Positions 71 through 16,073 of a stretch of 64,000 bases of DNA are shown here, one piece after another. The notes under the pieces were generated by a model. The model searched no databases. It was not told the DNA's origin and saw nothing but the letters and a program-made list of their open reading frames with translations. A program made the position numbers and the translations under genes. Numbering within the stretch: position 1 is the first letter of the stretch; every line of letters begins with the position of its first letter. Source of the stretch: Candidatus Omnitrophota bacterium (GTDB lineage: Bacteria; Omnitrophota; Gorgyraeia; Gygaellales; Profunditerraquicolaceae); assembly GCA_041662125.1 (NCBI GenBank), contig JBAZTA010000003.1:7992-71991 (forward strand), read 5' to 3'.

Positions 71-1603
71 ATGAAGAAATTCCCTGTATTACTTATATGT
101 TTTGTTCTTATGTTCCCGTTACTTGCGCCTGCTCAAGGGGTAACGGGAAAAGTCATAACGTTAGATGTTAAAGATATCGATATTGCTGATGTTATCCGTA
201 TGATCGCTGATCAGAGCGGGATGAATATCGTTGCTTCGAAAAATGTGCAGGGGGCGGTATCGATCAGTTTAAACAATGTCCCGGTAGAGGTCGCGCTTGA
301 ATCCATATTAAAAGTAAATAATTGCGCCTATATTAAGGAAGGCGATGTTTTGGAGGTTTATACCCTCGCTGAACTAAAGCAGAAAGAGCAGTTTGCCCGT
401 CAGACGACGCGTATTTTTACCTTGCAAAATGTGAAGGCTGTTGATCTTAAGCCGATGTTGCTGTCGCTTAAATCCCCGTTAGGAAGGGTTGAAGTCGAAC
501 CGAAATCCAATCGTGTCATTGTCAGCGATATTGAAGAAAATATGAACACCTTTGATGAGGCGATACGCGAAATCGACCGAAAGATGGAGACGAAAGTTTA
601 CCGCCTTAATTATGCTAGGCCTATTGATCTGCAGAAAAATATCCTGGGGATCATTCCTGCTACTGAAGGGGATGTCCTCGTTGATGACCGCACGAATAGC
701 CTTGTGGTTACTGCTTCGCCGCTTTTATTGAATAAGCTTGATGTATTAATACGCAGCTGGGATAAGCAGGTCCCGCAGGTGTTGATAGAAGCTAAAATCA
801 TGCAGGTCACGTTGGAAAAAGGAAAATTTGTCGGATTGGATTGGAAGTATCAAAATCCCGAATCTTATTCCGTTACTGTGGGCGCAAAAGATTTGCCTAT
901 ACCGACAGGCGCGACCTACGTTGAAGCTTTTAAGATCGGTGTCCTTGATCAGGATGATTATCAGGTTACCTTACGGACCCTGGAGAAATCAAGTGACGCG
1001 AACTTGATCTCAAGCCCCAGTATCGTCGCACTTGAAAACCAGGAGGCGCGGATCCTGATAGGATCGAGTGAGCCTTATGAGGTGTTTCATTACGACGCTG
1101 AAGGCCATGTAACGGGTAAGGAGCTTAAGTTTGTGGAAGTCGGTATAAAGTTGACGGTAATTCCTAAAATTTCCGATGACGGCTATATTACGATGACTAT
1201 TCATCCGGAAGTAAGTACTCCCCGGATAGGGACGGCAACTAACGCTTTAGCTATTGATACCACCGAAGCAACGACTGTGATGACTGTTAAAAACGGCAAT
1301 ACCGTGGCCTTAGGAGGCCTCATAAAGGATGAAAAAGAAAAGCATATTGCGCGCGTTCCGATACTGGGTGAGATCCCGCTTATTAAGTACTTGTTTCAAA
1401 ACAGTTTTACAAAAATCGTAAAAAAAGAGATCATTATTTTTATCACTCCGCACATTATAGGTGGGGACCGAAAAACCATCCCCTTTACCGAATCCGGGTT
1501 TTCAGCAATGAGGGATGACGCAATGGTAAAAGCTATAGGTATATTCGCGCCTCAGGCGACCGCCGATATCAGAAATAAACGTGAGAAAAAAAATAAAAAA
1601 TAA
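71..1603 (+). CDS. Secretin (PilQ/GspD family) outer-membrane channel
   Basis: N-terminal signal peptide (MKKFPVLLICFVLMFPLLAPAQG). Secretin_N-like repeats and a C-terminal secretin domain (VTASPLLLNKLDVLIRSWD, ISSPSIVALENQEARILIGSSEPY, VPILGEIPLIKYLF). Confidence 0.85.
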   Translation: MKKFPVLLICFVLMFPLLAPAQGVTGKVITLDVKDIDIADVIRMIADQSGMNIVASKNVQGAVSISLNNVPVEVALESILKVNNCAYIKEGDVLEVYTLAELKQKEQFARQTTRIFTLQNVKAVDLKPMLLSLKSPLGRVEVEPKSNRVIVSDIEENMNTFDEAIREIDRKMETKVYRLNYARPIDLQKNILGIIPATEGDVLVDDRTNSLVVTASPLLLNKLDVLIRSWDKQVPQVLIEAKIMQVTLEKGKFVGLDWKYQNPESYSVTVGAKDLPIPTGATYVEAFKIGVLDQDDYQVTLRTLEKSSDANLISSPSIVALENQEARILIGSSEPYEVFHYDAEGHVTGKELKFVEVGIKLTVIPKISDDGYITMTIHPEVSTPRIGTATNALAIDTTEATTVMTVKNGNTVALGGLIKDEKEKHIARVPILGEIPLIKYLFQNSFTKIVKKEIIIFITPHIIGGDRKTIPFTESGFSAMRDDAMVKAIGIFAPQATADIRNKREKKNKK

Positions 1604-2360
1604 CCTTTGGGTAATTATTTCTTTTTTAGTAATTATCTTTTTGACCAGCGTTAGCCTCCAAAATAAGAAGTTCCTATCTTTGAGTTTTTCCAAAAGCCGC
1701 GATATCCCATTATTAAGCCAGGTTGACAAGAACCAAAGCCTTAATAAAAGCGTATTAAAAATCGGGGCAAAAAATAATGCGCGTTTTGATCCGCGCCTAA
1801 AATTGTTAGGCACTATAGTGGGTAATCCTTCGCTTGCGTATGTTTTTAATCTTGCAAGCAATAAAAATGAGTTTTATCGAGTTGATGATATGATCAATGA
1901 TGTCCAACTTGTCGGTATTGGATCAGGGAAGATCCTTTTGAGTAAGTTGGGTGTCACTCAAGAATTAGCATTGGGCCGAGAGGGGGCAAGGTTTGAGAAT
2001 CCGTATATTGCCGAAGAGAAGAGTAGGGATAATGAAATCGTGATCAGTAAGTCTTTTGTGTTTGAAGAGGTTAAAAGAGCAAATGAAATATTAAGGACGG
2101 TCAAGATCCTTCCTATACCGGATGAGGGTCCTACTAATCGATTAAAAGGATTCAGGATCGATAATGTGCCTGGAGGAAGTATTTTTGATAAGGCTGGATT
2201 AAAAAGTGGAGATGTGATCTGTTTTATTCAGGGGCAGAGGCTGGAAAGCGCTTTAGAAGCTGTCCGCATATTCCATACGGTTCAGAATCAGCCTGAGGTT
2301 AAGGTTGATTTGATGAGGAATAATGAAATGTTGACATTGCGATATAAAATCAGAAACTAG
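1581..2360 (+). CDS. GspC/PilP-like secretin-associated protein with C-terminal PDZ domain
   Basis: N-terminal TM helix, a central region similar to a GspC homology-region beta domain, and a PDZ-like C-terminus (GGSIFDKAGLKSGDVICFIQGQRL). Its position between the secretin and GspE supports the assignment. Confidence 0.45.
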   Translation: MRKKIKNNLWVIISFLVIIFLTSVSLQNKKFLSLSFSKSRDIPLLSQVDKNQSLNKSVLKIGAKNNARFDPRLKLLGTIVGNPSLAYVFNLASNKNEFYRVDDMINDVQLVGIGSGKILLSKLGVTQELALGREGARFENPYIAEEKSRDNEIVISKSFVFEEVKRANEILRTVKILPIPDEGPTNRLKGFRIDNVPGGSIFDKAGLKSGDVICFIQGQRLESALEAVRIFHTVQNQPEVKVDLMRNNEMLTLRYKIRN

Positions 2361-2371
2361 CCAGGGTAGAA

Positions 2372-4072
2372 GTGAAGATGAATAAAAAAATCGATCTAGA
2401 AAAAGAATTAAAGGAAAATCTTAAAATAAAAGATAATCTCTGGAAGGAATGCCTGCAAGAACAGGAAAATTCAGGTGATCTTTTAAGTAGGATCATGATC
2501 AGTAAAGGATTAGCGAGTGAAGATGACCTGCTTTTCTTGTTTTCTCGCCTGTTGAAGATCCCCTATATAAGAATTAAAGAACTGGATATCGATATTGAAT
2601 GTATTAAGAAAATCCCCGCGAAATTAGTAAAACATTATAATTTCTTCCCCCTTAAACAAGTTAACGGAAAGTTAAAGGTCGCGATCAGTGACCCCAGCGA
2701 TATCGTGCTGCTTGATGAGATCAGGCTTTTTTTAGGTGAGAATATTGAGTTTGTTATCGCTAGTTCTAAGAATATTTTAGAGTCAATTCAAGAGTTCTAT
2801 GGCTTAGGCGCGGAAACGTTAGAAAAGATGGTTACGGATGCGTCTATTGACCTGGAAATATTAAAGACGAAAAGCGATGAAGATATAAAAGATGCCACTC
2901 TTGATCCTACGGTTATTAAATTCCTCAATGAAGTTCTTGTTGAGGCAATAAAAAAACGGGCGACCGATATCCATCTTGAACCCTTTGAAGAAGAGTTGAG
3001 GATCCGCTATAGGATAGATGGCGTTTTGTATGAAGTGCCGTGTCCGGCTTCAATCAAACATTTTCAATCTTCGATCGCATCCAGGATTAAGGTTATGGCA
3101 AGCCTTGATATTACGGAAAAGCGCAGGCCCCAGGACGGCAGGATCAAGGTCCGTATGGGAAATGAAGTTTTTGATCTGCGTGTTTCGGTGTTACCGACTC
3201 CTTTTGGGGAAAGTATCGGGATAAGGATACTTTCACGGGGGACTCCGTTAATTGGGCTCGAACAATTAGGAATGCCTGTGGAAACGTTGAATATTATTGA
3301 AGAGGCGATTGTTAGGCCGTATGGGATAATTTTAGCTACCGGGCCAACGGGGAGCGGTAAAACAACCACGCTTTATTCTTGTTTAAGTAAAATAAATTCC
3401 GCACAACGAAAAATAATTACCGTTGAAGACCCCATAGAGTATCAATTAAAGGGTATTACTCAGATGCAGGTGGAGCCGAAGATCGGCTTTACCTTTGCCA
3501 CTGCGCTGCGTTCAATGTTGCGCCATGACCCTAATGTCATGATGGTTGGCGAGATCCGCGATACCGAAACTGCGGAATTGGCGGTAAGGACTTCTTTGAC
3601 CGGGCATTTGGTTTTTAGTACCCTGCATACAAATGACGCTGCCGGGGCAATCGCGCGGCTTTCAGATATGGGAGTTGATACATTTTTGGTTTCTTCTTCG
3701 ATCAATCTGATCATCGCGCAGAGATTGGTAAGGCTTATTTGCCCTGATTGTAAAGATGAAGTTTCTCCTCAGCAAGAATTTTTGCAGAAATTTGATGCTA
3801 ACGATAAACTTAATATACAGTTTTACCATGGCAGCGGATGTGAAAAGTGTCGTTTTACCGGATATCAAGGCAGAAGTGGTATTTTTGAAGTGCTGGTTGT
3901 AAATGATGATATAAAGGCAATGATCCTTAATAATGTCGCCCCGAATAAGCTGAAACAAAAAGCCATTTCTTTAGGGATGAAGACATTACGTGATGCTGGT
4001 TTGGAAAAGGTAAAAAAAGGGTTGACTACGTTAGAAGAAGTAGTCAGGGTGACGCAAGAAGAAGAGGGGTAG
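2372..4072 (+). CDS. gspE: Type II secretion / type IV pilus assembly ATPase (GspE/PilB family)
   Basis: T2SSE N-domain and Walker A GPTGSGKTTT. Asp and His boxes (VMMVGEIRDTETAELAVRTSLTGHLVFSTLHTND). Tetracysteine Zn motif CPDC...CEKC. Confidence 0.9.
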   Translation: MKMNKKIDLEKELKENLKIKDNLWKECLQEQENSGDLLSRIMISKGLASEDDLLFLFSRLLKIPYIRIKELDIDIECIKKIPAKLVKHYNFFPLKQVNGKLKVAISDPSDIVLLDEIRLFLGENIEFVIASSKNILESIQEFYGLGAETLEKMVTDASIDLEILKTKSDEDIKDATLDPTVIKFLNEVLVEAIKKRATDIHLEPFEEELRIRYRIDGVLYEVPCPASIKHFQSSIASRIKVMASLDITEKRRPQDGRIKVRMGNEVFDLRVSVLPTPFGESIGIRILSRGTPLIGLEQLGMPVETLNIIEEAIVRPYGIILATGPTGSGKTTTLYSCLSKINSAQRKIITVEDPIEYQLKGITQMQVEPKIGFTFATALRSMLRHDPNVMMVGEIRDTETAELAVRTSLTGHLVFSTLHTNDAAGAIARLSDMGVDTFLVSSSINLIIAQRLVRLICPDCKDEVSPQQEFLQKFDANDKLNIQFYHGSGCEKCRFTGYQGRSGIFEVLVVNDDIKAMILNNVAPNKLKQKAISLGMKTLRDAGLEKVKKGLTTLEEVVRVTQEEEG

Positions 4073-4897: not shown

Positions 4898-5518
4898 ATG
4901 AATAATAAAATTTATTCAATTGTTGTGGTAATCTTAGTTTTTGCGGCATTAATTAGTTATGCCGCTTATTTTCCCACCAAACTTGCTTCTCAGACAGAAA
5001 GGATGATCTCTGATTTTCCTTTAGTAATCGGCGAGTGGACTGGTGAGGATATGGTTTTAAGTGACAGGGTGTATGAGTTATTAGAAACCAGGAATTTGAT
5101 CATGCGTAACTACCATAATAAAAAGGGCGAAATCATCAATCTTTATATCGTTTATTCTCAAGATAACCGAAAGGTCAGTCATCCTCCGGAAATTTGTTTG
5201 CAAGGAGATGGCGCAGCTATTGTTGATAAATCTACTCTTCAAGTAACAGATTCGATAGTAGCAAATAAATTAGTTATAGAGAAAGAGTTATCCCGGGAAT
5301 TAGGCGTTTATTGGTATAAAGCGGGAAAAGTGTATTCAAATAATTATATATTACAGCAATTGAGGTCATCTTTAGGGGGGATGTTTGGAAAGCGGGTATC
5401 TTCCGCGTTAATCAGGGTATTAACTTCGGTTGAAGGTGGAAAAGATGATCTGGCGTTAACTAGAATTAAGGAGTTTTGTAGGCTTATTGAGCCTTTGTTG
5501 CCGCAGTATGTGCCGTAA
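4898..5518 (+). CDS. Exosortase-associated EpsI-family protein
   Basis: About 200 aa with one N-terminal TM helix, immediately downstream of the exosortase with a 1-nt gap. This is the typical EpsH-EpsI arrangement. Confidence 0.55.
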   Translation: MNNKIYSIVVVILVFAALISYAAYFPTKLASQTERMISDFPLVIGEWTGEDMVLSDRVYELLETRNLIMRNYHNKKGEIINLYIVYSQDNRKVSHPPEICLQGDGAAIVDKSTLQVTDSIVANKLVIEKELSRELGVYWYKAGKVYSNNYILQQLRSSLGGMFGKRVSSALIRVLTSVEGGKDDLALTRIKEFCRLIEPLLPQYVP

Positions 5519-5528
5519 TTTGTAATTT

Positions 5529-5582
5529 AAGACCCGGTCTTATCTGTAACTAAGTGTTACATGCCAAGACCGGGTCTTTTTA
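5529..5582 (+). terminator. Hairpin plus T-run terminator; also copy A of the REP-like palindromic repeat family
   Basis: AAGACCCGGTCTT ... AAGACCGGGTCTT inverted repeat with about a 24-nt loop, followed by TTTTT, just after the EpsI stop. Confidence 0.6.
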
Positions 5583-5621
5583 TGTTGTTGCTACCCGTAT
5601 AATTTGTTTATAATAGTAAAG

Positions 5622-5650
5622 AGTAGTTATCTTATTTATTTATAACTACT
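5622..5650. promoter_or_regulatory. Perfect 9-bp inverted repeat AGTAGTTAT-N11-ATAACTACT (candidate enhancer/UAS)
   Basis: Lies about 180 bp upstream of a sigma-54-like -24/-12 element, in a 300-bp AT-rich leader. Confidence 0.3.
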
Positions 5651-5818
5651 TATGATAATATCACCTGAAAACGCTTTCAATGATGTTGAAATTAGTGAAC
5701 AACCGCATTCTATAGTATTTCCCCTTTTCTAATTAATTATTTTTTAACAAGAAAAACAATAGAAGTATCTGCAGTATATATACTTAAAAACTTAATAAAA
5801 TTATTTATAAATATAGGG

Positions 5819-5835
5819 TTGGCATGGATAATGCT
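5819..5835 (+). promoter_or_regulatory. Candidate sigma-54 (-24/-12) promoter TTGGCATGGATAATGCT
   Basis: GG and GC dinucleotides spaced exactly as in TGGCAC-N5-TTGC. Sits about 45 bp upstream of the sugar-transferase start. rpoN and a sigma-54 activator are encoded nearby. Confidence 0.45.
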
Positions 5836-5880
5836 CTTAAGAAGATGATGGATTCATAGAAAATGAATTAAAAGGAAAAG

Positions 5881-6753
5881 ATGGGTAAAAAGACTATAAA
5901 AAAGAGAAAGTTTGAACGAACAATGAAAAGAATCAGTGTTGGCATATTATTAGTAATGTTGCTTTTTGTTTTAGAGCCTGTTTTGAGGGGTAAAGATATC
6001 TTTGCTATCACTTATTTGGGAAATCCGATTTCCTATGAACAAAACAATCAAATGAGCGTAGAATTTACTCAAACTCCGATTAAGAAGACTTTTGCCCCGG
6101 AACCGAGCTCATTTTTACTCATTTTGGGCGGTATTGGCGGGATCATTATTAGTTTTGTCCGCAGAAGCTTTGATAAGATTAAAAGAGGTTTGGACCTTAT
6201 TTTGGCTATTATTGGTTTGATCATTGGTTCTCCATTACTTATTCTAGCTGCAATCTTTATTAAGATCGATTCCCGAGGGCCTATTGTATATCAACAGAAC
6301 AGAGTTGGCAGGCGCGGGAAGATCTTTAAGATATATAAGCTTAGGACAATGAGGTTGGATGCAGAAAAAGGGACCGGTGCTGTTTGGGCAAAAAGAAACG
6401 ATCCTCGTATTACCGAAATTGGCAAGTTCTTAAGAAAAACGAGAATTGATGAAATTCCTCAATTAATTAATGTTTTAAAGGGTGAAATGAGTATTGTTGG
6501 CCCTCGTCCGGAAAGGCCTGAAATGGTTGTGGATTTTAAGAAGCTTATTTGTGACTATGAGAAAAGGCTTATTGTTAAACCTGGTATAACCGGACTTTCC
6601 CAAATATATAATAGGTACGATGAAACAATAGCTGATGTTAGGAAAAAGGTTAAGTATGATCTTTTATATATAAGGAAAATGTGCTTGTGGGTAGAGATGC
6701 GGATTTTAGCTCAGACTGTCTTTGTTGTTTTTACAGGAAAAGGCGCTAATTAG
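5881..6753 (+). CDS. Bacterial sugar transferase (polyprenyl glycosylphosphotransferase, EpsB/WbaP-C family) with an N-terminal signal peptide and an internal PEP-CTERM-like segment
   Basis: The C-terminal 200 aa carry sugar-transferase motifs (KRGLDLILAIIGL..., DEIPQLINVLKGEMSIVGPRPE). Residues ~72-96 read APEPSSFLLILGGIGGIIISFVRRS, which is a PEP-CTERM signature: PEP, a TM stretch, then Arg-Arg. Confidence 0.8.
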   Translation: MGKKTIKKRKFERTMKRISVGILLVMLLFVLEPVLRGKDIFAITYLGNPISYEQNNQMSVEFTQTPIKKTFAPEPSSFLLILGGIGGIIISFVRRSFDKIKRGLDLILAIIGLIIGSPLLILAAIFIKIDSRGPIVYQQNRVGRRGKIFKIYKLRTMRLDAEKGTGAVWAKRNDPRITEIGKFLRKTRIDEIPQLINVLKGEMSIVGPRPERPEMVVDFKKLICDYEKRLIVKPGITGLSQIYNRYDETIADVRKKVKYDLLYIRKMCLWVEMRILAQTVFVVFTGKGAN

Positions 6754-6768
6754 AAAGGGAATGAAAAT

Positions 6769-7293
6769 ATGAAGAAATTATTAATAGCGTTATTGTTAGT
6801 TGTAGGAGTATTTGCTCTTTCCAAGTCTGCGTTCGCAATACCGTACGCTGATGTCATTAACTACAATTCTCTTATGACAATTGGAATGAGCCACACGTAT
6901 AATTTTAATCTCAATACTGATACTTTGCTCGATGGGGATATTAATGCTGAAGACCAAATTAATTCAGCTGCACTGGCAATTAGCTTTTTTGATGATGAGA
7001 CTGATACGTGGAGACCATCTACTTGGGAACTATCATTGATTGATGTCGATAGTGACCTATACTTATGGGATACTGGTACTTTTCAGGCTAATGTTTACAA
7101 TAGAGTGGTCAATGATCATCAGTTGGAAGTTACCGTTACTAGCTTGTGGGGTGATTTTAATTTAGGTAATGCTTCGTTATCTGGTGATTATACGAATTTG
7201 CCTACTACAGCTCCGGTTCCTGAACCGGCTTCATTGTCTCTTTTAGGTATTGGTTTGTTGGGTTTATTGGGTGGTTTACGAAGGATTAACTAG
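6769..7293 (+). CDS. PEP-CTERM sorting-domain secreted protein
   Basis: Signal peptide. C-terminus reads TTAPVPEPASLSLLGIGLLGLLGGLRRIN followed by stop. Confidence 0.88.
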   Translation: MKKLLIALLLVVGVFALSKSAFAIPYADVINYNSLMTIGMSHTYNFNLNTDTLLDGDINAEDQINSAALAISFFDDETDTWRPSTWELSLIDVDSDLYLWDTGTFQANVYNRVVNDHQLEVTVTSLWGDFNLGNASLSGDYTNLPTTAPVPEPASLSLLGIGLLGLLGGLRRIN

Positions 7294-7356
7294 TTAAGGA
7301 AGATTCTTAGAGCTTAACTAATTGAAAATAGAGAAAAAGAGAGGGGGTGAGAAATA

Positions 7357-7986
7357 GTGAAAAAAGTTATTTTTTTCTTAATTGCGGTTTCGTTTGTTTT
7401 AGGGCTAAACGCAAGTGCTTTTGCTCTTCCGTTTAGTTCTTTAGGTTGGGTTGATCCTAATTATAGCAATTCATGGGATCCTACTACGTCAACTGGTACT
7501 GCAAGGTACCATTTTGATTGGAGTGATCCAGATGTTAGCGTCACATCATTAGAGTTACAATTCGAAGGAGACATTTTTAATTTAAGTCTTCTCGATGCGA
7601 GTGATTTTAATGTAGTAGCGCCTCCATCATGGACTACGACAATGTGGATAGATAATGGAGTGTCTCATTGGGGAATTTCGAGTGGATTAGGAGTTGATTT
7701 TACTCAGTCACCAATAGTAGTTGATGTGAACTATACACTTCTTTCTTCTAGTCGTTATTCATTTGGAGATAGTACTTATGCTGGAGATCTTAATCAATGG
7801 GGATGGGATGAAGCTCAGGGGGCCAATAATGCTTGGTCGCAGAAATATGATTTAGTGGGTACTAGTATTTCGAGCGGCAGGTTGTATACAAGCCCTGGTT
7901 CAACAGCTCCAGTTCCAGAGCCAGCTACAATGTCGTTATTAGGGATAGGTATTTTGGGATTATTTGGTTTACGAAGAAAGTCCTAG
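7357..7986 (+). CDS. PEP-CTERM sorting-domain secreted protein
   Basis: Signal peptide. C-terminus reads STAPVPEPATMSLLGIGILGLFGLRRKS followed by stop. Confidence 0.88.
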   Translation: MKKVIFFLIAVSFVLGLNASAFALPFSSLGWVDPNYSNSWDPTTSTGTARYHFDWSDPDVSVTSLELQFEGDIFNLSLLDASDFNVVAPPSWTTTMWIDNGVSHWGISSGLGVDFTQSPIVVDVNYTLLSSSRYSFGDSTYAGDLNQWGWDEAQGANNAWSQKYDLVGTSISSGRLYTSPGSTAPVPEPATMSLLGIGILGLFGLRRKS

Positions 7987-8053
7987 GCTTTCTTTCGGTG
8001 AAATGATTCTAAAATGCCACCCTCAGAAGTGCATTTTCGAAACTGCAAATAAG

Positions 8054-8090
8054 AGGGGGCAAATCAATATGGTTTGCCCCTTTTTTTTTC
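8054..8090 (+). terminator. Rho-independent terminator
   Basis: GGGGGCAAA-loop-TTTGCCCC followed by a T9 run. Confidence 0.65.
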
Positions 8091-8128
8091 GAAATATGTA
8101 ATATGCTGTGAATTATAAGGTTGCAAGC

Positions 8129-8157
8129 TTGACAAATAAACTTGGTAATGGTATACT
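8129..8157 (+). promoter_or_regulatory. Sigma-70-like promoter TTGACA-N17-TATACT
   Basis: Consensus -35, a 17-nt spacer and a near-consensus -10, about 50 bp upstream of the 8206 gene. Confidence 0.45.
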
Positions 8158-8205
8158 TAAACAAGTTGTTTCAAATTATCAACATTATGATCAATAAGAG
8201 GTTTA

Positions 8206-9129
8206 ATGAATCCTCAGACCACTAAATTCCCTTCACTAAAGAAAGTATACAATAATACTTTTAGCTTCTTAAAACACAATAAGTTACTATTTATTCCCTT
8301 TATTATCTTTTCAATCCTTGAACTGCTCGCGTTGATTTTTATCTACATTTCTCCCCGTATGCCGTTTGTTATTGTTTTAGGACCGCCTATCAAAGCATTT
8401 TTTGGAGCGCAATTCTTGCATTATCCCATGAATTTTGTTTTAATTCCAAAATTAGCGGGTATCTCGCGAAGTGTTTTGTCGATATTAGTGGGGGCACTTT
8501 TAAGCGCGGTGGCAGTGCAAGTCATTTTTAATCTTTATGAGAAGAAAACGGTAAGGATGATCAATGTCTTTAAAGCGTTACTGAAGAAATATGCTTCTTT
8601 GTTTCTTGTCGTATTGGTCATAACTATAGTATTTCATGGAGCTTTACAATTACCCGCATTAGGTTTAAAGTCATATTTTCTCACCGGCCACAAAACACTC
8701 TTATTTTTAAAACCAGCCATGTGGTTTGGTTCGATTTTAGCAGGTATTAGTTTTATAATTTCAATCTTTGTTCAGGGTTGTTTTGCTTACGTGATCCCGG
8801 TTTTGGTGATTGAAAAAGTAAATCCCTTCAAAGCGCTCTTGAGATCATGCGGTTTATTCTTTAAGTCTTTCTTTCCAACCATTATGTTAGTCGGTATCCC
8901 CATGTTGGCGTATGTGCCAATTATTATTTTGCAGTATAATACGCTTTTCATCATAAATAAGTTTTACCCGGAATTAGTGTTGTTTGTTGCTTTGCTAAAT
9001 GTGTTGGTTACTTCTTTGTTTGTCGATGTATTGATCACTGTTTCTACAACTTTGTTTTACCTTACCTATAAAGATAACTTAACACAAGGTAAGAAAACGT
9101 TGAATATAGCTCAAGAGACGCAAAAATGA
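8206..9129 (+). CDS. Polytopic integral membrane protein, function unknown
   Basis: Roughly 8 predicted hydrophobic helices. No recognisable catalytic motif. Confidence 0.5.
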   Translation: MNPQTTKFPSLKKVYNNTFSFLKHNKLLFIPFIIFSILELLALIFIYISPRMPFVIVLGPPIKAFFGAQFLHYPMNFVLIPKLAGISRSVLSILVGALLSAVAVQVIFNLYEKKTVRMINVFKALLKKYASLFLVVLVITIVFHGALQLPALGLKSYFLTGHKTLLFLKPAMWFGSILAGISFIISIFVQGCFAYVIPVLVIEKVNPFKALLRSCGLFFKSFFPTIMLVGIPMLAYVPIIILQYNTLFIINKFYPELVLFVALLNVLVTSLFVDVLITVSTTLFYLTYKDNLTQGKKTLNIAQETQK

Positions 9130-9974
9130 AAAAAACATTGTTTTCTAAAATTGTTTTTATTTTTATGGTTGTCTTCCTGGTTGGATGTTCATCGAATGAT
9201 CAATATTCTGTTGAGAGAAAATACTGGAAGATCAAAAAGCTGGCGGAGAAAGTTTTTAAAAATCCGGTAGCAACTCCTCCAAACGAATTAGAGCGTGTTG
9301 TCAGCCGTTCTGAAGAATTCATTAAGGAATATGCGGCCAATCCCTTATCAATAGAAGCCTCTTTTAATATTGCTCGTTTATATATTGTAAAAGAAGAATA
9401 TGAATCGGCCCGTAAGCAATTGCAGAAGATACTTCAGGCAAATAAGAAGTCGCCGGTCATTTGTTCTGAAGCTCTGTTTTTAATCGGTAACGCCTATCAG
9501 TTGCAGGATAAATGGAGCTTGGCTTTAGAGCAGTATAAGAAGATCACCCGGGAATATCCGACTACGGTCAAGGCCCTTGATATACCTATATTTATTGCCC
9601 AGAATTATAAGGTTAAAAATCAACCTGAAAAAATGATCGTGGCGTATCAGGATGCAATAGGGCAATATAGGACGCTCATTGAAACGTATCCAAATTCTTT
9701 GTTAGCATTTAATGCCTATTTGTTAGTAGCTCAATGTCATATAGCTTTAAAAGATTGGCAAATGGCCGTTAAAACTTTTGAAACGGTCATTGAAAAGTTT
9801 AACGGTAAGGCAAAAATGGACGGGGCGATGTTTGAGATGGCGATTATATATGCCAAGCAATTAAAAGATACAGGGAAAGCTAAAGAAATACTTGATAGAT
9901 TGAACAAAGAGTATCCAAAGAGCAGGTATAGTAAAGTATCGTTGCTTTTAATTAAGGAGTTGGATAAACAATGA
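9126..9974 (+). CDS. TPR-repeat lipoprotein
   Basis: Lipobox FLVGCSS. Several TPR-like helical repeats. Overlaps its neighbours by 4 nt, so it is co-translated with the two-component system. Confidence 0.6.
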   Translation: MKKTLFSKIVFIFMVVFLVGCSSNDQYSVERKYWKIKKLAEKVFKNPVATPPNELERVVSRSEEFIKEYAANPLSIEASFNIARLYIVKEEYESARKQLQKILQANKKSPVICSEALFLIGNAYQLQDKWSLALEQYKKITREYPTTVKALDIPIFIAQNYKVKNQPEKMIVAYQDAIGQYRTLIETYPNSLLAFNAYLLVAQCHIALKDWQMAVKTFETVIEKFNGKAKMDGAMFEMAIIYAKQLKDTGKAKEILDRLNKEYPKSRYSKVSLLLIKELDKQ

Positions 9975-11179
9975 CAGAACTTCGGATATTAGAGAATAAA
10001 GATTCCGGCGGGATACTTAAGCATTTCTTAAGCAGGACGCTTAAAGAGATAATGTCAGTGGTGCACGCGGAACGCGGGTCTTTGTTTTTGTTTGATTGCG
10101 AGCATAAGGAACTTGTTTTAAACACTTTTTATGTGCCTGAAAATACTGCTTTAAAAGAACTTCGCCAGAGGCTAGGGGAAGGTATTGCCGGGAAAGTTGC
10201 TGATATTAAAATCCCTATTTTAGTAAAAGATATAAAATGCGATTCTCGTTTTAAGCAGAATGGGTTCAGCCATTATCAGACGAATTCATTTATGTCGATA
10301 CCAATTTTTACCTCTGAGCGGCTCTTGGGATTGATCAATTTAGCGGATAAATCAACGGGTGGGCATTTTTCAGAAGAAGACCTGAATTTAGCGGTGACGA
10401 TCTCAAAATACGCCTGCCTTGCCCTTGAAAGCTTGAATAGTTATACCGGATTGAAACAGGAAAAAGAGGCTTTAGACAAGCAGAAAGCGTTATTAGAAAA
10501 GTATGCTTCAGTAGGAAAGCTTGCCGCCGGTATCGTTCATCAGATCAATAATCCTCTTGACGGGGTTATCCGATACGCCAATATTCTGCTCGATCAGATG
10601 GAAGATAATTCCGCGACGAGGGAGTATCTTTTAGAAATTACCAAAGGGCTCAACCGTATTGCTAAGATCACTCGCTCGCTTTTGGAGTTTTCACGCCAGA
10701 TCAATTTAAGTACCTCACATCATAAACACTATGTTGATATCCATACTTTGATAGAGGAATCTTTAGATGTCTTTGGAGAAGTTATTGACGGTACTATTAA
10801 GATCGAGAAGAATTTTGTTGCTGATCTGCCGAAAATCCTGGATTTTGGGTTGTCCCATGTGATAATTAATATAATTGAAAACGCCTTGGATGTTATGCCT
10901 AAAGGAGGCGTTTTATCGATAGAAACCGCGCTTAAAGAGTCCTGGGTTGCTATTACGATCATGGATACAGGTTGCGGTATCCCTGAAGAGGTCTTAAAAC
11001 GGATCTTTGAGCCGTTTTTTACGACCAAAAGTATGGATAAAGGCACGGGGTTAGGCTTGGCGATCAGCCAGGAGATCATTAATAAGTACGGCGGGTCAAT
11101 TAAAGTGCAGAGCGTTGTTAAAAAGGGGAGTTCTTTTACCATTTTAATTCCGAAAACATTCTTAAAAAATGCTGAATAA
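9971..11179 (+). CDS. Cytoplasmic sensor histidine kinase (GAF-HisKA-HATPase_c)
   Basis: N-terminal GAF domain. H-box IVHQINNPLDG. N, G1 and G2 boxes (DTGCGIPEE, GTGLGLAI). Confidence 0.85.
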   Translation: MTELRILENKDSGGILKHFLSRTLKEIMSVVHAERGSLFLFDCEHKELVLNTFYVPENTALKELRQRLGEGIAGKVADIKIPILVKDIKCDSRFKQNGFSHYQTNSFMSIPIFTSERLLGLINLADKSTGGHFSEEDLNLAVTISKYACLALESLNSYTGLKQEKEALDKQKALLEKYASVGKLAAGIVHQINNPLDGVIRYANILLDQMEDNSATREYLLEITKGLNRIAKITRSLLEFSRQINLSTSHHKHYVDIHTLIEESLDVFGEVIDGTIKIEKNFVADLPKILDFGLSHVIINIIENALDVMPKGGVLSIETALKESWVAITIMDTGCGIPEEVLKRIFEPFFTTKSMDKGTGLGLAISQEIINKYGGSIKVQSVVKKGSSFTILIPKTFLKNAE

Positions 11180-12569
11180 CACAAATTTAAATAAAAACGG
11201 GCATATACTTGTTGTTGATGATGAGCCTTTAGTGCGCGGTTCTCTTACGGAACTCTTGACGCTTTCCGGTTATACTGTCAGCGCCGCAAATAACGGTAAA
11301 GAAGCGATCGATTTCTTGAAGAATTATACCGTTGATCTTGTGATAAGCGATATTAAAATGCCGGAAATAGATGGGACACAATTATTAAAACAAATTAAGA
11401 AAGATCATGCGGATACTCCGGTCATTATGATCACCGGGTATGGAAGTATTGAAAATGCGGTCGAAGCGGTAAAAGAAGGGGCGTATGATTATATCACCAA
11501 GCCTATCGTAGACAGCGAAATAAAGCTTGTTATTGAACGATTGTTGAAAGACCGCCAGCTTCATGAAGAAAACATTAAGCTTAAAGAACAATTGTCTATT
11601 TCACAAAGGACGCGTTTTCATAATATTGTCGGTAAAGATGAAAAAATGCAGAAAATTTATTCGTTGATCGAGGCTATTGCCAAAACGAGAGCGACTATTC
11701 TGATACAGGGAGAAAGCGGGACCGGCAAGCGTATGATCGCGCATGCGATACATAAATATAACGAAGTTGAGCGGGAAAAGCCTTTTGTTGAAGTAAGCTG
11801 TGGGGCTTTGACTGAAACTTTGCTTGAGGGCGAGCTTTTTGGCCATGTTAAAGGAGCTTTTACCGGAGCCATTAGAGACAGGATCGGGCGGTTTGAATTA
11901 GCCGATGGGGGGACGATATTCTTAGACGAAATCGACGCTTTTTCGCCGGCGTTACAGGTAAAATTATTACGGGTCCTGCAGGAAGGGGAGTTTGAGCGCG
12001 TTGGCGATACTAAGACTTTAAAGGTTGATGTGCGGGTGATTGCCGCGACAAATCAGAATCTCCAGGATTTGATCAGTAAAGGAACGTTTCGTATGGATTT
12101 ATACTACCGGTTAAATATTATTGCAATTGACCTTCCTCCCTTGCGGGAGCGAAGAAATGATATCCCGCTTTTGGCTGAAGATTTTATTCTGAAACACTCC
12201 CAGCATATCAACAAGAAAATTGAAGGGTTATCTGATGAGGCGTTGTCAATATTAAAAAGTTATCAGTGGCCCGGTAATGTCAGGGAATTAGAAAATGTCA
12301 TAGAGCGGGCGATCATTTTATCCCAGGGGCCGGTGATTACGCGTGAAGATCTGCCGGAATATTTGCATAAGCTCGGGAATACAAACCTGTTGACTTCTGA
12401 AGAAAACTATCTAAAATTAAGAGAAGCTTTAAAATCACCTGAGAAGGATTTAATAGTAAAAGCTCTTGAGTCGGTGAATTGGAGCCGTAATGATGCCGCC
12501 TCGGTGTTGGGGATCAATAGGACGACCTTATATAAAAAGATGTGTAAATATGGACTCTTAAAGAAATAA
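11169..12569 (+). CDS. Sigma-54-dependent response regulator (REC-AAA+-HTH, NtrC/PrsR-like)
   Basis: REC domain with phospho-Asp DIKMPEIDG. Walker A GESGTGKR. GAFTGA motif. C-terminal Fis-type HTH. Confidence 0.9.
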   Translation: MLNNTNLNKNGHILVVDDEPLVRGSLTELLTLSGYTVSAANNGKEAIDFLKNYTVDLVISDIKMPEIDGTQLLKQIKKDHADTPVIMITGYGSIENAVEAVKEGAYDYITKPIVDSEIKLVIERLLKDRQLHEENIKLKEQLSISQRTRFHNIVGKDEKMQKIYSLIEAIAKTRATILIQGESGTGKRMIAHAIHKYNEVEREKPFVEVSCGALTETLLEGELFGHVKGAFTGAIRDRIGRFELADGGTIFLDEIDAFSPALQVKLLRVLQEGEFERVGDTKTLKVDVRVIAATNQNLQDLISKGTFRMDLYYRLNIIAIDLPPLRERRNDIPLLAEDFILKHSQHINKKIEGLSDEALSILKSYQWPGNVRELENVIERAIILSQGPVITREDLPEYLHKLGNTNLLTSEENYLKLREALKSPEKDLIVKALESVNWSRNDAASVLGINRTTLYKKMCKYGLLKK

Positions 12570-12582
12570 CCTTGAGAAAAGC

Positions 12583-13569
12583 ATGAATACAGATGAATTA
12601 GATATAAGAAGTATTATCGATATTAAGAAGTGGCAGCAAATTCAGGATAGTTTTTCCGCTATTACTGAATTGGGGTTACGTGTTGTCGATTCTAAAGGTA
12701 ACGCGCTTACTTTTTCCAGCGGTGAGCCCAGGCTTTGCAGGGAACTTTTGGATGACCCTGCCATTAAAAACCGGGTGTGCGGCAGGTGTTTGCCGACTTT
12801 CCTGGGGGGGAAAGGCGTTGTGGACAGAAATTTGAATTTTGTTACCTGCGCGGGCATGCATAATTGCATAGCCCCGTTGAAAGTAGATAATAAAGTGTTT
12901 GCGTATTTGGTGATGGGCCCGGTTATTTTGGTGAGGCGTAATGCAAAAGAACAATACAAATCGGCTGCTGAAGAATTGGGTTTAGACCTGGATGATCTCT
13001 GGAATGCTTTATTGGAAATAAAGGTTGTTTCTTTTAATTGGGCGCAGTCATTGGTAGAATTTATCAGGGATATTTATGAATATGTCCTTAAACTGGCATA
13101 TCAGGCAAGGTTTAAGAGTAAAGATGTAGTTTCAGTTGATATATTGAAACTCAACCGTATATTAGAGGTTTTACTTGACGCTGCTTTTCAGATCAGCGGC
13201 GCTGATATTGGATCGGTGATGTTTCTTGATGAAAGTAAGAATAAGCTTACTATCCGCGCCTCAAAAGGGCTTTCTGATGAGGTGGTCAGGACTACCAATA
13301 TCGGGTTAGAAGAGGGGGTTTCCGGCATTGCGTTAAAAGAGAAAGCGTCTCTGTTAATCGATGATAACCTCAAAGATAATAGGGTGAAACGGTATCTGCA
13401 CCGTCCGTATATCAGTTCTTCGATGATCATTCCGATCAAGATCAAAAGTGAGATGCAGGGGGTTATTAATTTAGGGACTTTAGCGAGTTCGTCAGTCAAG
13501 TTTAATCTGAGTAGTATGAATTTGATCAATAGGATCGTTGATTTGGCAAGTGTGGCATTGCATTCGTAG
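12583..13569 (+). CDS. Sensory protein with PocR-like N-terminal domain and C-terminal GAF domain
   Basis: N-terminal Cys/His-rich PocR-like segment (CRELL..CGRC..CAGMHNCIAP). C-terminal GAF-like region. No output domain. Confidence 0.45.
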   Translation: MNTDELDIRSIIDIKKWQQIQDSFSAITELGLRVVDSKGNALTFSSGEPRLCRELLDDPAIKNRVCGRCLPTFLGGKGVVDRNLNFVTCAGMHNCIAPLKVDNKVFAYLVMGPVILVRRNAKEQYKSAAEELGLDLDDLWNALLEIKVVSFNWAQSLVEFIRDIYEYVLKLAYQARFKSKDVVSVDILKLNRILEVLLDAAFQISGADIGSVMFLDESKNKLTIRASKGLSDEVVRTTNIGLEEGVSGIALKEKASLLIDDNLKDNRVKRYLHRPYISSSMIIPIKIKSEMQGVINLGTLASSSVKFNLSSMNLINRIVDLASVALHS

Positions 13570-13593: not shown

Positions 13594-13727
13594 AAGACCC
13601 GGTCTTGGCTGTAATTTAAAAATACCAGTTAAGACCGGGTCTTTTTGCGTATAAGACCGGGACTTGAATTGTAGTATTTTATCATTGATAAGTCCCGGTC
13701 TTGAAATGTGATTCAGACCGGGTCTTA
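13594..13727. repeat. REP-like palindromic repeat cluster, copy B (three hairpins)
   Basis: AAGACCCGGTCTT...AAGACCGGGTCTT, AAGACCGGGACTT...AAGTCCCGGTCTT, CAGACCGGGTCTTAG. Sits between convergent genes and abuts the rpoN stop. Confidence 0.7.
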
Positions 13728-15065
13728 GCGTTCTTTTCGGAAAGTTGAAGAGAGGATCTTAAGTTCTTCGCGGTATTTTGCGACAGTGCGCCTGGCGAGG
13801 TTTAAGTTATCTTCACTAGAGAGGATCTTTACTATATCCTGGTCGCTTAATGGTTGTTTTTTGTTTTCTTTGTCGATTAATTCTTTAATGCGGCTTTTAA
13901 CTACGGTTGAAGAGATAGATTCGCCGTTTTTATGATGGATGTGGCTTGAGAAGAAATTCTTAAGCGCGATAACCCCGCAGGGAGTTTTCGCGTATTTGTT
14001 CATTACTACCCGGCAAACGGTAGATTCGTGTAAGTCAAGTTTGTCGGCGATCTCTTTGAAGGTGAGCGGCTTCATTTGAGAGAGGTCTTCCCGTATTGCT
14101 TCTCCTTGGATCTCGGTGATCGTATTGACTACCCTGCGTAACGTGCTTTTCCTTTTTTCAATGGCTTTTATCAGTTCAAGGGCTTTACGTAATTTATTGG
14201 TGATGAATTCTCTGGTTTTCGGGTCAAGATCCTCTTTTTTAAGCAGATCTTTGTATAGTTTACTGACAGTCAGGCGAGGGATATATTCATGGTTTATAAT
14301 TATTTCGAATCCATCGCTTTTTTCTTCGATGAGGATGTCGGGGACGATTCTGTGAGCTTCATCAAGGGAATAATTCCGTCCCGGTTTCGGGTTTAATTTC
14401 ATGATCTTTTTAATTGATACTTCGATCTTCTCCAGCGGTTCTTTTAATACTTTCGAAATATGGTTATAGTTTTTTTTGGCAATGTCGTCAAGATGGTGCA
14501 GGCAGATCGCTTTTGTGAGAGGATCGAGTTCATTCAATAATTTTAATTGTATGAGTAAACATTCAGAAATGGTCCTGGCGCCCACGCCTGAGGGCTCAAA
14601 TTGTTGTATTAAGGAAAGCACTTTTTCGATCTTTGCCTCTGAAGCGTGTATTTGAACAGCCATTCCTTCCGTCGAAGATTGTAAATATCCATTTTCGTCT
14701 ATATTCCCGATAATTTCCTGGCCTATTTTAAGCTCTTCGTCTGAATTGGTAAACATGCCTAATTGCCGCAATAAGACATCTTGAAGAGATACTTTGTTCA
14801 TCAAAAGAGACGTGTTGGTTTCGTTATCTTGAGTTTGGGTATTATTGGGTAATGAAGGAGGAGAGTTTAATCTTGCAAGATCTTCCGGTGAAAGAGGGGA
14901 GGTGATCTCTTCTTGAGAAGAAAATTCCTCCAGAACAGGGTTAGTAAGAAGTTCTTCTTCTACCACTTGGTTTAGGTCTAGCAGATGCAGCGTTAAGATG
15001 TTTAACGATTGCCGCATTTCGGGAGCTAAAACCCGCCTGAATTCGAACCTTTGTCTTAATTCCAT
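13725..15065 (-). CDS. rpoN: RNA polymerase sigma-54 factor
   Basis: Acidic/Gln-rich region, core-binding domain, and the C-terminal RpoN box ARRTVAKYRE. Confidence 0.9.
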   Translation of the reverse strand: MELRQRFEFRRVLAPEMRQSLNILTLHLLDLNQVVEEELLTNPVLEEFSSQEEITSPLSPEDLARLNSPPSLPNNTQTQDNETNTSLLMNKVSLQDVLLRQLGMFTNSDEELKIGQEIIGNIDENGYLQSSTEGMAVQIHASEAKIEKVLSLIQQFEPSGVGARTISECLLIQLKLLNELDPLTKAICLHHLDDIAKKNYNHISKVLKEPLEKIEVSIKKIMKLNPKPGRNYSLDEAHRIVPDILIEEKSDGFEIIINHEYIPRLTVSKLYKDLLKKEDLDPKTREFITNKLRKALELIKAIEKRKSTLRRVVNTITEIQGEAIREDLSQMKPLTFKEIADKLDLHESTVCRVVMNKYAKTPCGVIALKNFFSSHIHHKNGESISSTVVKSRIKELIDKENKKQPLSDQDIVKILSSEDNLNLARRTVAKYREELKILSSTFRKER

Positions 15066-15333: not shown

Positions 15334-16068
15334 GTGCATAAAGAAACCATAGGACATAGTGAATTTACCTTTAAGTTTGTTGAAGAACCTGTTTTAATGG
15401 ATCAGGTCTACCGCCTGCGTTTTCAGGTATATTGCGAAGAATGCAAGTTTATTAGAGAAGAAGAATACCCTGATAACCGCGAACAGGATAAATATGACCA
15501 GTACGCGCTTCATTTTGTCGTGGAAGACAACTTTGAAGTAATCGGCACTATGCGGCTGATCCTTGATTCTTCTGTAGGCTTTCCGATCGAAGAGCGCTGT
15601 GGTGCTGACTTAAAATTCGATAAAAAAAGTGTAGCCCGCAATAAGATAGCGGAGATCTCCCGCCTTGTTATCAGTAAAGATTATCGGCGTAGAAAAGACG
15701 ATGGGTTGTATTATACTCCTGAATTTGATGAGAAATCTCTCCTGGGGAATTCGAATAATCCTTTTCGCCGGATCAGGACTATGACCTTTGGGATGTATCG
15801 CGAACTATATCATGAAAGCAAACGTCGGGGCCTGACGCATTGGTACGCGCTCATGGAGAAATCATTGTGGAAATTATTGGACTTGAATGGGTTTACTTTT
15901 AAGCCTATCGGCCAAGAAATTGATTATTATGGTGTGGTGACCCCGTATATTGGAGTTATTGAAGAAATCGAGCGGGAATTTTATAAGAAGTATCCGCAGT
16001 TCTTTACTAAGTTTTTTCTTGATGGTTTAGAAACCCAATTTCATCCGGAATTCCTTTCTTCTGCATAA
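15334..16068 (+). CDS. GNAT-fold N-acyl amino acid synthase-like acyltransferase (FeeM / autoinducer-synthase-like; exosortase-system-associated type)
   Basis: About 240 aa. Sequence pattern FTFKFVEEP...YRLRFQVYCEEC...GTMRLILD...EISRLVISKDYRR is typical of long-chain N-acyl amino acid synthases. It sits directly upstream of an acyl-activating enzyme. Confidence 0.5.
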   Translation: MHKETIGHSEFTFKFVEEPVLMDQVYRLRFQVYCEECKFIREEEYPDNREQDKYDQYALHFVVEDNFEVIGTMRLILDSSVGFPIEERCGADLKFDKKSVARNKIAEISRLVISKDYRRRKDDGLYYTPEFDEKSLLGNSNNPFRRIRTMTFGMYRELYHESKRRGLTHWYALMEKSLWKLLDLNGFTFKPIGQEIDYYGVVTPYIGVIEEIEREFYKKYPQFFTKFFLDGLETQFHPEFLSSA

Positions 16069-16073
16069 AAAAT

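Follow-up and report, generated by a model that had tools for sequence, protein, structure and literature searches.

Here, we describe a gene in a 64,000-nucleotide stretch of a Candidatus Omnitrophota genome (contig JBAZTA010000003.1; the whole stretch is referred to as the window) whose product carries a PEP-CTERM-type unit directly ahead of a complete bacterial sugar-transferase domain. The gene lies between an exosortase gene with its EpsI-family partner and two genes for PEP-CTERM proteins (Table 1), and its architecture recurs in all of its closest homologues. It was co-occurrence with PEP-CTERM proteins and polysaccharide loci that led to the prediction of exosortases in 2006. To our knowledge, the acceptor of their cargo and the tie between sorting and polysaccharide synthesis are still unsettled in the field.

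Architecture and conservation of the PEP-anchored transferase

Table 1. Features of the exosortase locus in the window (aa, amino acids; nt, nucleotides)
Feature	Position	Strand	Evidence and remarks
Secretin	71-1603		
PDZ protein	1581-2360		
GspE/MshE-type ATPase (MshE-N/GspE)	2372-4072		
Exosortase, 270 aa	4084-4896	+	PF09721, E 1e-62
EpsI-family exosortase partner, 206 aa	4898-5518	+	TIGR02914, 88.3 (cut-off 42.8)
Intergenic gap, 362 bp	between EpsI and transferase		
Near-palindrome GAAAACGCTTTC, consensus GAAAACG(C/T)TTTC	5667-5678	.	Conserved about 150 nt upstream of the promoter
Sigma-54-type -24/-12 promoter, TGGCAT-N5-ATGCT	5820-5835	+	45 nt upstream of the start codon
Predicted PEP-anchored small phosphoglycosyl transferase, whole open reading frame, 290 aa	5881-6753	+	Open for 290 codons
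N-terminal hydrophobic segment, aa 18-35 (signal peptide h-region or first transmembrane segment)	5932-5985	+	Column statistics
Spacer, aa 36-71 (36 residues), predicted periplasmic side	5986-6093	+	
PEP-CTERM-type unit, aa 72-96, APEPSSFLLILGGIGGIIISFVRRS	6094-6168	+	A-P-E-P, Gly-rich hydrophobic helix, R94-R95
Re-entrant membrane helix (presumed), aa 101-129	6181-6267	+	K101-R102, D105, S117-P118
Bac_transf (PF02397) catalytic domain, aa 101-284	6181-6732	+	Pfam E 3e-66
PEP-CTERM protein 1, 174 aa, signal peptide, tail VPEPASLSLLGIGLLGLLGGLRRIN	6769-7293	+	PF07589, 25.1 bits
PEP-CTERM protein 2, 209 aa, tail VPEPATMSLLGIGILGLFGLRRKS	7357-7986	+	PF07589, 33.4 bits
Polytopic membrane protein, 307 aa	8206-9129	+	No Pfam or NCBIfam match
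TPR protein	9126-9974		
GAF histidine kinase	9971-11179	+	
Sigma-54-dependent response regulator	11169-12569	+	PrsR (TIGR02915), 416 bits (cut-off 502.6)
PocR-GAF protein	12583-13569		
Sigma-54 (rpoN)	13725-15065	-	
PEP-CTERM/exosortase-system acyltransferase	15334-16068		TIGR03694, 189.9 bits, above cut-off
280-aa open reading frame with LAGLIDADG_3 domain, directly after the acyl-ligase gene	18858-19700		E 3e-14

The protein matches PF02397 along the complete domain (222.7 bits against a cut-off of 27), residues 101-284 covering profile positions 1-178 of 179. Among 99 aligned family members, K101, R102, D105 and P118 are invariant; they lie in the helix that we take, from established knowledge of PglC-type enzymes, to be re-entrant, which has a basic start (K101-R102) and a Ser-Pro break (S117-P118). 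So are D190-E191 (nt 6448-6453) and P208-R209-P210-E211 (nt 6502-6513), whose catalytic role we likewise assume from PglC. Judged by these features, the gene product is a PglC-type small monotopic phosphoglycosyl transferase of the Bac_transf family, and it belongs to a large group of such enzymes that have a PEP unit ahead of the re-entrant helix. PglC-type enzymes start a glycan by transferring the first sugar-phosphate to its polyprenyl-phosphate carrier. Two database sequences, P0001 and P0003, match the protein at 100% identity; the latter is annotated as 'sugar transferase' from a Candidatus Omnitrophota bacterium.

Ahead of the enzyme domain stands a unit reading A72-P-E-P75-SSFLLILGGIGGIIISFV-R94-R95, with residues 76-93 as its hydrophobic stretch. 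This agrees with the tripartite build of PEP-CTERM signals, i.e., P-E-P, a hydrophobic helix of about 14-17 residues and a basic cluster. K101-R102-x-x-D105, which opens the Bac_transf domain, begins five residues past R94-R95, and with 194 residues following, the unit is not C-terminal. PF07589 (PEP-CTERM) recognizes residues 73-95 with 17.3 bits in the whole protein and 19.5 bits in the N-terminal 100 residues alone; TIGR02595 was not listed for the protein at E<=0.01. A relaxed regular expression for PEP, hydrophobic stretch and basic cluster, applied to all six frames of the window, found only three units: one in the transferase and the others, at 7216 and 7912, at the C-terminal ends of the two proteins encoded downstream.

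The residues before the unit comprise a K/R-rich start, the hydrophobic segment ending in a conserved L-E-P, and a spacer with a long and charged c-region. Within the spacer, a motif [TSI]-F-A-[VI]-T-[YF]-[FL] occupies residues 40 onwards, and F41 and A42 (nt 6001-6006) are kept in 111 and 117 of 120 homologues, respectively; this could be a signal-peptidase site. The rest of the spacer is variable among homologues and disordered in the AlphaFold2 (AF2) model. That model (predicted local distance difference test, pLDDT, 73; predicted template modelling score 0.53) contains a helix at residues 3-35 (pLDDT about 91), falls below pLDDT 50 at residues 46-62, and draws residues 75-130 as one continuous helix, in which neither the re-entrant break nor the packing of the PEP helix against the re-entrant helix is resolved. 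The first-pass annotation of this open reading frame (ORF) had reported a PEP-CTERM-like segment running in frame into a complete sugar-transferase domain, and the continuous 290-codon frame and the domain match bear out the latter point. It had counted about 50 residues ahead of the PEP motif where there are 71, and had taken the PEP unit for the first membrane helix of the enzyme. A membrane helix it most probably is; it is, however, the second hydrophobic segment, after the N-terminal signal or anchor segment, and would take first place only upon cleavage of the latter.

The 120 closest homologues (56-100% identity, 256-316 aa), drawn from independent JGI, NCBI, ENA and Logan assemblies, all show the PEP-transferase architecture without a break. 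Within and just after the unit, E74 and G84 are invariant (120 of 120 each), A72, P73 and P75 are kept at 92% or more (116, 115 and 111 sequences), and R91 and F97 occur in 113 and 118. The alignment is free of gaps from residue 67 to the catalytic domain, and in the full-length alignment of 99 sequences E74 and G84 are the sole invariant columns outside the enzyme domain. These counts for P-E-P and for the glycine derive from the unbiased protein search only, since the DNA pattern used for the genome scan forces both. When N-terminal segments of the family were isolated, PF07589 matched 55 of 59 at E<=0.1 (best E 2e-6). Some relatives exceed its gathering score (L118, 23.5; L020, 22.1; L111, 26.4; L014, 22.9), and L014, L047 and L118 pass the TIGR02595 cut-off. 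A single P-D-P variant (P0215) was noticed among Planctomycetota-type relatives. With its invariant Glu, these profile matches and the tail-like register described below, the PEP-CTERM-like segment is real. A plain transmembrane helix lacking the PEP motif was not seen in any of the 120 homologues.

An artefact, i.e., a frameshift, missed stop or misassembly that joined a small PEP-CTERM gene to the transferase gene, was a concern of the first pass, and nothing in its favour was found. The frame is uninterrupted in all 120 homologues from independent assemblies and in at least about 117 genome loci, with identical PEP-to-K-R-x-x-D spacing throughout. Continuity of the reading frame is thus not an assembly accident, and we regard such an origin as vanishingly improbable.

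Distribution, N-terminal classes and likeness to genuine tails

To assess the breadth of the architecture, we built by hand a DNA pattern requiring PEP-x8-G-x12-[FY]-x3-KR-x2-D-x12-P, which gave one match in the window, none in shuffles and one in each of four known loci. Applied to GTDB genomes, one for each species, the pattern returned at least 119 stretches, of which L009 is a chance match and the rest are transferases bearing the unit. PEP-anchored transferases thereby occur in at least 115 species-level genomes under several phylum-level labels. Most loci are labelled Omnitrophota or 'uncultured Planctomycetales/Planctomycetota', others Brocadiia, Elusimicrobia, Auribacterota or PVC group, and a few odd labels are perhaps binning errors. 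The first-pass suggestion that a small PEP-CTERM gene was recently fused onto the transferase is ruled out by this breadth together with the 120 of 120 homologues; the architecture is old.

A profile of the N-terminal 100 residues, searched against 1.84 billion representatives, gave 33 matches and no convincing free-standing homologue. Most of these matches were fragments of the PEP-transferase architecture or signal-peptide classes, and two were weak small PEP-CTERM proteins (P0141 and P0152); no donor gene for the fusion emerged from this search. The closest relatives without the helix, found in a search with the protein of L005, are ordinary 204-aa small transferases (P0246, P0249, P0269 and P0270; 57-60% identity) that begin directly at the re-entrant helix. 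What the family adds to a standard small transferase is thus a PEP helix of about 25 residues.

The family falls into classes according to what precedes the PEP motif (slashes mark predicted cleavage points). In class A, the type of the window, this is ...L-E-P-x-L-R-x-K-x-[TS]-F-A-V-T-Y-F-D, an anchor that looks uncleaved. Class B has a textbook cleavable signal peptide (...A-W-A/T-V-S-F-V-K-P...) followed by about 30 residues, and class C a signal peptide (...C-Y-A-Q/, ...V-S-A/D) followed by only 5-10 residues. Nothing stands ahead of the unit in class D, in which the protein starts with M-P-E-P. Class E has a long ectodomain, which reaches 245 residues ahead of IPEPGTMVLFGSG in L118 (485 aa in total) and is shorter in L020, L053 and L111.

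The M-P-E-P start of class D is real. In-frame stops lie 0-14 codons upstream in most of its loci, in L079 and L102 directly before the ATG, and many loci have Shine-Dalgarno sequences (e.g., aggaggtgatttaaaATG in L083). Of 120 relatives retrieved with the L005 protein as query, at least 65 begin at MPEP in independent gene calls (JGI, NCBI, ENA, Logan), and further MPEP starts occur in subfamilies whose transferase motif escaped the regular expression used. Members of this class are still found downstream of exosortase-EpsI in L005, L012, L024, L028, L044, L061, L086 and L102. In L102, an ORF ending in IQRYARNTRKDKNA stops immediately before the M of M-P-E-P.

Synteny was counted in fixed tiles of 8 kilobases (kb), upstream counts being taken from loci with at least 2.2 kb of upstream sequence; absences from these counts are weak evidence. 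Of the 52 loci of classes B and C together, 48 have an exosortase gene and 49 an EpsI gene upstream in the orientation of the transferase, and PEP-CTERM genes follow downstream in 37 of 48. The corresponding fractions are 3/3, 3/3 and 6/6 for class A, 6/16, 5/16 and 4/15 for class D, and 0/3, 0/3 and 2/2 for class E.

Some genomes carry two members of the family. L059 (5668-6513) and L098 (986-1840) form a paralogue pair about 3.3 kb apart on the same contig (JBAZMA010000001.1). The interval contains one PEP-CTERM gene and could accommodate another, and more PEP-CTERM genes lie downstream of the second transferase. L020 and L111 are both from the Elusimicrobia metagenome-assembled genome UBA6262, which likewise has two PEP-anchored transferase paralogues. 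In some loci, a small conserved ORF (43-45 aa, MSRLLVFIKEIKEGLIEAQRHLEIYMFLQRFHAR...) lies between the sigma-54 promoter and the transferase start (L001 7864-8001, with its stop overlapping the transferase start codon; L003 7677-7847); it is absent from the window. In P0054, P0062, P0081, L021, L054 and L091, this sequence is part of the transferase itself, which it extends in frame at the cytoplasmic N-terminus.

As a reference for the units, we used 131 genuine PEP-CTERM tails that these loci encode. Units and tails share the register P-E-P-x-[ST]-[ML]-x-L-[LF]-G-x-G-x-x-G, of which two of the three glycines are not forced by the search pattern, and the distance to the first basic residue is equal. 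Across the window and about 1 Mb of fetched loci, 109 PEP units are internal, all of them in PEP-transferases, and the 157 others are C-terminal; as the loci were chosen by the transferase pattern, this split shows only that no other family there has an internal unit. In Elusimicrobia-type loci, helix and tail appear to match (PEPGTM... in both), which is anecdotal. Among the proteins from the search with the N-terminal profile, the predicted P0134 (2500 aa), P0145 (928 aa), P0150 (1038 aa) and P0151 (1235 aa) each contain 4-10 complete PEP-CTERM units, spaced every 200-300 residues or so (e.g., VPEPSTALLLGLGLVGL..RRRR) and followed by an Ala-rich, signal-peptide-like stretch. They would be either read-through calls over tandem PEP-CTERM genes or true polyproteins with internal units.

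Gene neighbourhood and predicted regulation

The exosortase upstream of the transferase exceeds the cut-offs of TIGR02602 (162.9 versus 105.55) and TIGR04178 (67.2 versus 23) and has the conserved Cys, Arg and His of the family (C181 in CSG, R226 in NIIRI and H247 in HDVMG). It reaches the cut-off of no named Xrt subtype (XrtA, 179.4 versus 208). The gene order of the window is repeated in three loci fetched via homologues. Secretin, PDZ protein and MshE-N/GspE ATPase are encoded in conserved order directly upstream of the exosortase (window 71-4072, L001 1-6150, L003 1-5807), and this set of type II secretion/type IV pilus-like genes suggests a dedicated route for the export of cargo across the outer membrane. 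L001 and L003 also encode a GspF-type platform protein between ATPase and exosortase; the window has no GspF-type gene between its ATPase (which ends at 4072) and its exosortase (which starts at 4084). In about 45 of the fetched loci, a homologue of the polytopic membrane protein is encoded downstream of the PEP-transferase and the PEP-CTERM genes (phmmer E as low as 1e-85), which points to an uncharacterised core component of the exosortase operon.

By its position and promoter, the transferase gene appears to be the first gene of a sigma-54-driven operon, located after exosortase-EpsI and before the genes for PEP-CTERM cargo. The -24/-12 element is part of a block, TTGGCA(C/T)-N5-AATGCT, that shows no variation between the window and three homologous loci (L001, at about 7800-7830, with equivalents in L002 and L003). 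The search with the -24/-12 pattern matches 5820-5835, though this pattern by itself occurs in the window no less often than expected by chance. The near-palindrome further upstream is a candidate binding site for the sigma-54 activator, and the kinase and response regulator at 9971-12569 are likely to regulate the promoter at 5820. Promoter, near-palindrome, activator (11169-12569) and rpoN (13725-15065) together look like a self-contained regulon. A GC-rich inverted repeat, AAGACCCGGTCTT ... AAGACCGGGTCTTTTT, lies at 5519-5600 immediately past the EpsI stop; a scan covering 5400-8300 did not list this repeat. It resembles an intrinsic terminator, in which case the transferase operon would be a separate transcription unit.

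Downstream of the acyltransferase and up to 18767, the window encodes an 897-aa fusion of an AMP-binding enzyme and a phospholipid-acyltransferase domain, and L002 carries an equivalent FeeM-like gene and an AMP-binding gene. The lipid-modifying enzymes at 15334-18767 may have a bearing on what the cargo is attached to. The LAGLIDADG_3 ORF that follows may be a homing-endonuclease-like element.

Possible roles of the PEP unit and relation to known systems

We propose, with a probability of about 0.5, that the neighbouring exosortase recognizes the PEP helix as a handle, by which the priming enzyme of the locus would be tethered to the sorting enzyme. The PEP motif would lie at the outer face of the inner membrane, the Gly-rich helix would come next, and the basic cluster on the cytoplasmic face would run straight into the cytoplasmic enzyme, so that one topology would suit both sorting signal and enzyme. 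Given the positive charges N-terminal to the first hydrophobic segment and C-terminal to the PEP helix, and given that the transferase domain needs to be cytoplasmic, we infer that the N-terminus is inside, the first segment leads outward, the spacer is outside, and the PEP helix leads back to R94-R95 inside, ahead of the re-entrant helix. In class D, the short M-P-E-P end would be the only part outside. In the AF2 model, helices occupy residues 3-35 and the part from P75 onward, and the spacer between them is disordered. Docked at the exosortase by its handle, the priming enzyme could bring glycan priming and PEP-CTERM processing to one place, and it would possibly be processed by the exosortase in addition to being tethered. 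Binding of the handle is in line with the strong synteny. The unit is kept in all classes, including one that has no cargo to sort; its Glu is invariant, it resembles genuine tails, and it is encoded beside an exosortase. This suggests that selection acts on the handle itself and not on what precedes it.

Several observations weigh against this proposal. The window protein stays just under the PF07589 gathering score of 20.7. Directly ahead of PEP, the units have Ala (68%) or the initiator Met (19%) and the tails Val, Ile or Thr (94%), a systematic difference that could mean a different kind of interaction, or none. An exosortase was found inside the 8-kb tile in only 6 of 16 class D loci and in none of the three long-ectodomain loci, and an M-P-E-P subgroup, MPEPITMAVMGGG... 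(10 loci), has none in its fetched tile. Nor did a permutation test find locus-specific co-variation of the helix with the tails of its own neighbours: mean BLOSUM scores were 19.5 within a locus and 19.1 against other loci, and the observed value was attained in 2126 of 10000 permutations.

The lack of co-variation and the M-P-E-P subgroup without a neighbouring exosortase would both be expected if the PEP helix were a mere structural membrane anchor of the small transferase that has lost any interaction with exosortase, whether it was captured long ago from a PEP-CTERM protein or arose by convergence as a Pro-capped helix. Adjacency to exosortase would then merely reflect a shared polysaccharide locus, and sugar transferases are common in exosortase loci anyway (PMC1569441). 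Such an anchor does not, however, readily account for the Glu of P-E-P, invariant in the window family and replaced in the one P-D-P relative mentioned above, as a charged residue at a helix cap serves no obvious purely structural need. The glycine register shared with real tails and the near-constant gene order (48 of 52) also speak against it, and ordinary small transferases manage without a PEP helix; we therefore hold this explanation to be less likely than a handle. About as likely as the anchor, and a serious alternative in our view, is that the N-terminal part is itself a genuine exosortase substrate, cut at PEP after Sec export and removal of the signal peptide. The short ecto-peptide, or the 245-residue ectodomain of some relatives, would be removed or transferred, with the transferase as membrane-anchored 'leaving group'. 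The cleavage would mature, activate or time the priming enzyme, and glycan would be synthesized only when exosortase is active. The classes with a typical cleavable signal peptide (...AWA/TVSFVKP..., ...CYAQ/..., ...VSA/D...) indeed show the layout of a full PEP-CTERM precursor, with spacer and PEP-transmembrane-basic unit, and this layout would be complete in classes A and E as well. In L118, the unit IPEPGTMVLFGSG follows the long ectodomain and scores 23.5 bits with PF07589. The window-family [TSI]-F-A/[VI]-T-Y-F is moreover similar to the xFA/ sites in the two cargo proteins encoded downstream. However, the relatives that start at M-P-E-P keep the unit with nothing to cut off, the ecto-part is unconserved between classes and modelled as disordered in the window protein, and the -1 residue is Ala or Met instead of the Val, Ile or Thr of cargo tails.

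Less probable still, we believe, is a built-in adaptor, by which exosortase and priming transferase would form one complex and the polyprenyl-linked glycan begun by this transferase, or a product of its operon, would be the long-sought acceptor of PEP-CTERM proteins, the M-P-E-P-start enzymes being the minimal form of the adaptor. If true, the family would offer the first clue, readable from sequence, to the molecule that receives the cargo of exosortases. As to the recognition handle that we favour, a glycan-starting enzyme that bears an exosortase recognition unit would be a concrete, testable physical link between sorting and polysaccharide synthesis, and in the M-P-E-P-start class this unit would be everything ahead of the enzyme. 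With ecto-parts that are absent, short or long, the family offers a natural series of constructs for work on binding and cleavage.

We found no description of a PEP unit ahead of a sugar transferase in the searchable literature; the 2012 archaeosortase/exosortase paper, which lies outside that search, may contain a remark on it. NCBIfam (release 20) has no dedicated model for PEP-anchored transferases, which are currently annotated simply as 'sugar transferase', and the Pfam pair PF07589 and PF02397 is already precomputed for a few database entries. The architecture, which joins two known modules, has thus apparently been implicit in databases and neither interpreted nor described. With PglC-type members of PF02397, the PEP-transferases share the full-length domain, K-R-x-x-D ... 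S-P, the D-E dyad and P-R-P-E; they differ in the 25 to more than 100 residues added at the N-terminus, which include a predicted true membrane-spanning PEP helix. With TIGR03013 (EpsB_2, XrtA/PEP-CTERM) and TIGR03025 (EPS_sugtrans) they have the catalytic domain and the association with exosortase systems in common. Proteins of those two families, however, have about 445 aa and a multi-helix N-terminal half, and the window protein matches positions 253-445 only. It stays below both cut-offs, with 291.5 versus 295.55 for TIGR03025, its best NCBIfam match, and 247 versus 393.35 for TIGR03013, while some relatives pass TIGR03025 (L014, 311.8; L047, 297). The window protein is set apart from these two families by profile score and extent of match.

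A precedent from another sorting system, of purely functional likeness, is archaeosortase ArtA, which works and co-localizes with the lipid-synthesis enzymes PssA and PssD in Haloferax volcanii (PMC7157517). ArtA, a sorting transpeptidase of the superfamily that includes exosortases, depends on enzymes that make the anchoring molecule, and we propose a similar logic for the PEP-transferases. PssA and PssD, however, are separate proteins that have no sorting-signal-like helix and make lipid, not polyprenyl-linked sugar.

The closest comparison is with PEP-CTERM itself (PF07589/TIGR02595). The tripartite unit, the helix length, the G-x-G-x-x-G register and the exosortase neighbour are the same, and the orientation that we propose for the PEP helix of the transferase equals that of the PEP-CTERM tail in the model of Haft et al. 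(PMC1569441). A signal-peptide-like N-terminus precedes the unit in most classes and nothing in one. The differences are the Ala or Met before PEP and above all the position of the unit, which is followed by a whole cytoplasmic enzyme, whereas 87% of PEP-CTERM domains lie within 10 residues of the C-terminus (Haft et al. 2006, PMC1569441). Atypically placed copies were considered in the same study as ones that 'may represent non-functional examples' (PMC1569441), to which the PEP-transferase family is a conserved counter-example. A 'C-terminal' sorting signal would accordingly be usable, under selection, at a position that is not C-terminal, which is at odds with what current domain models and annotation rules assume.

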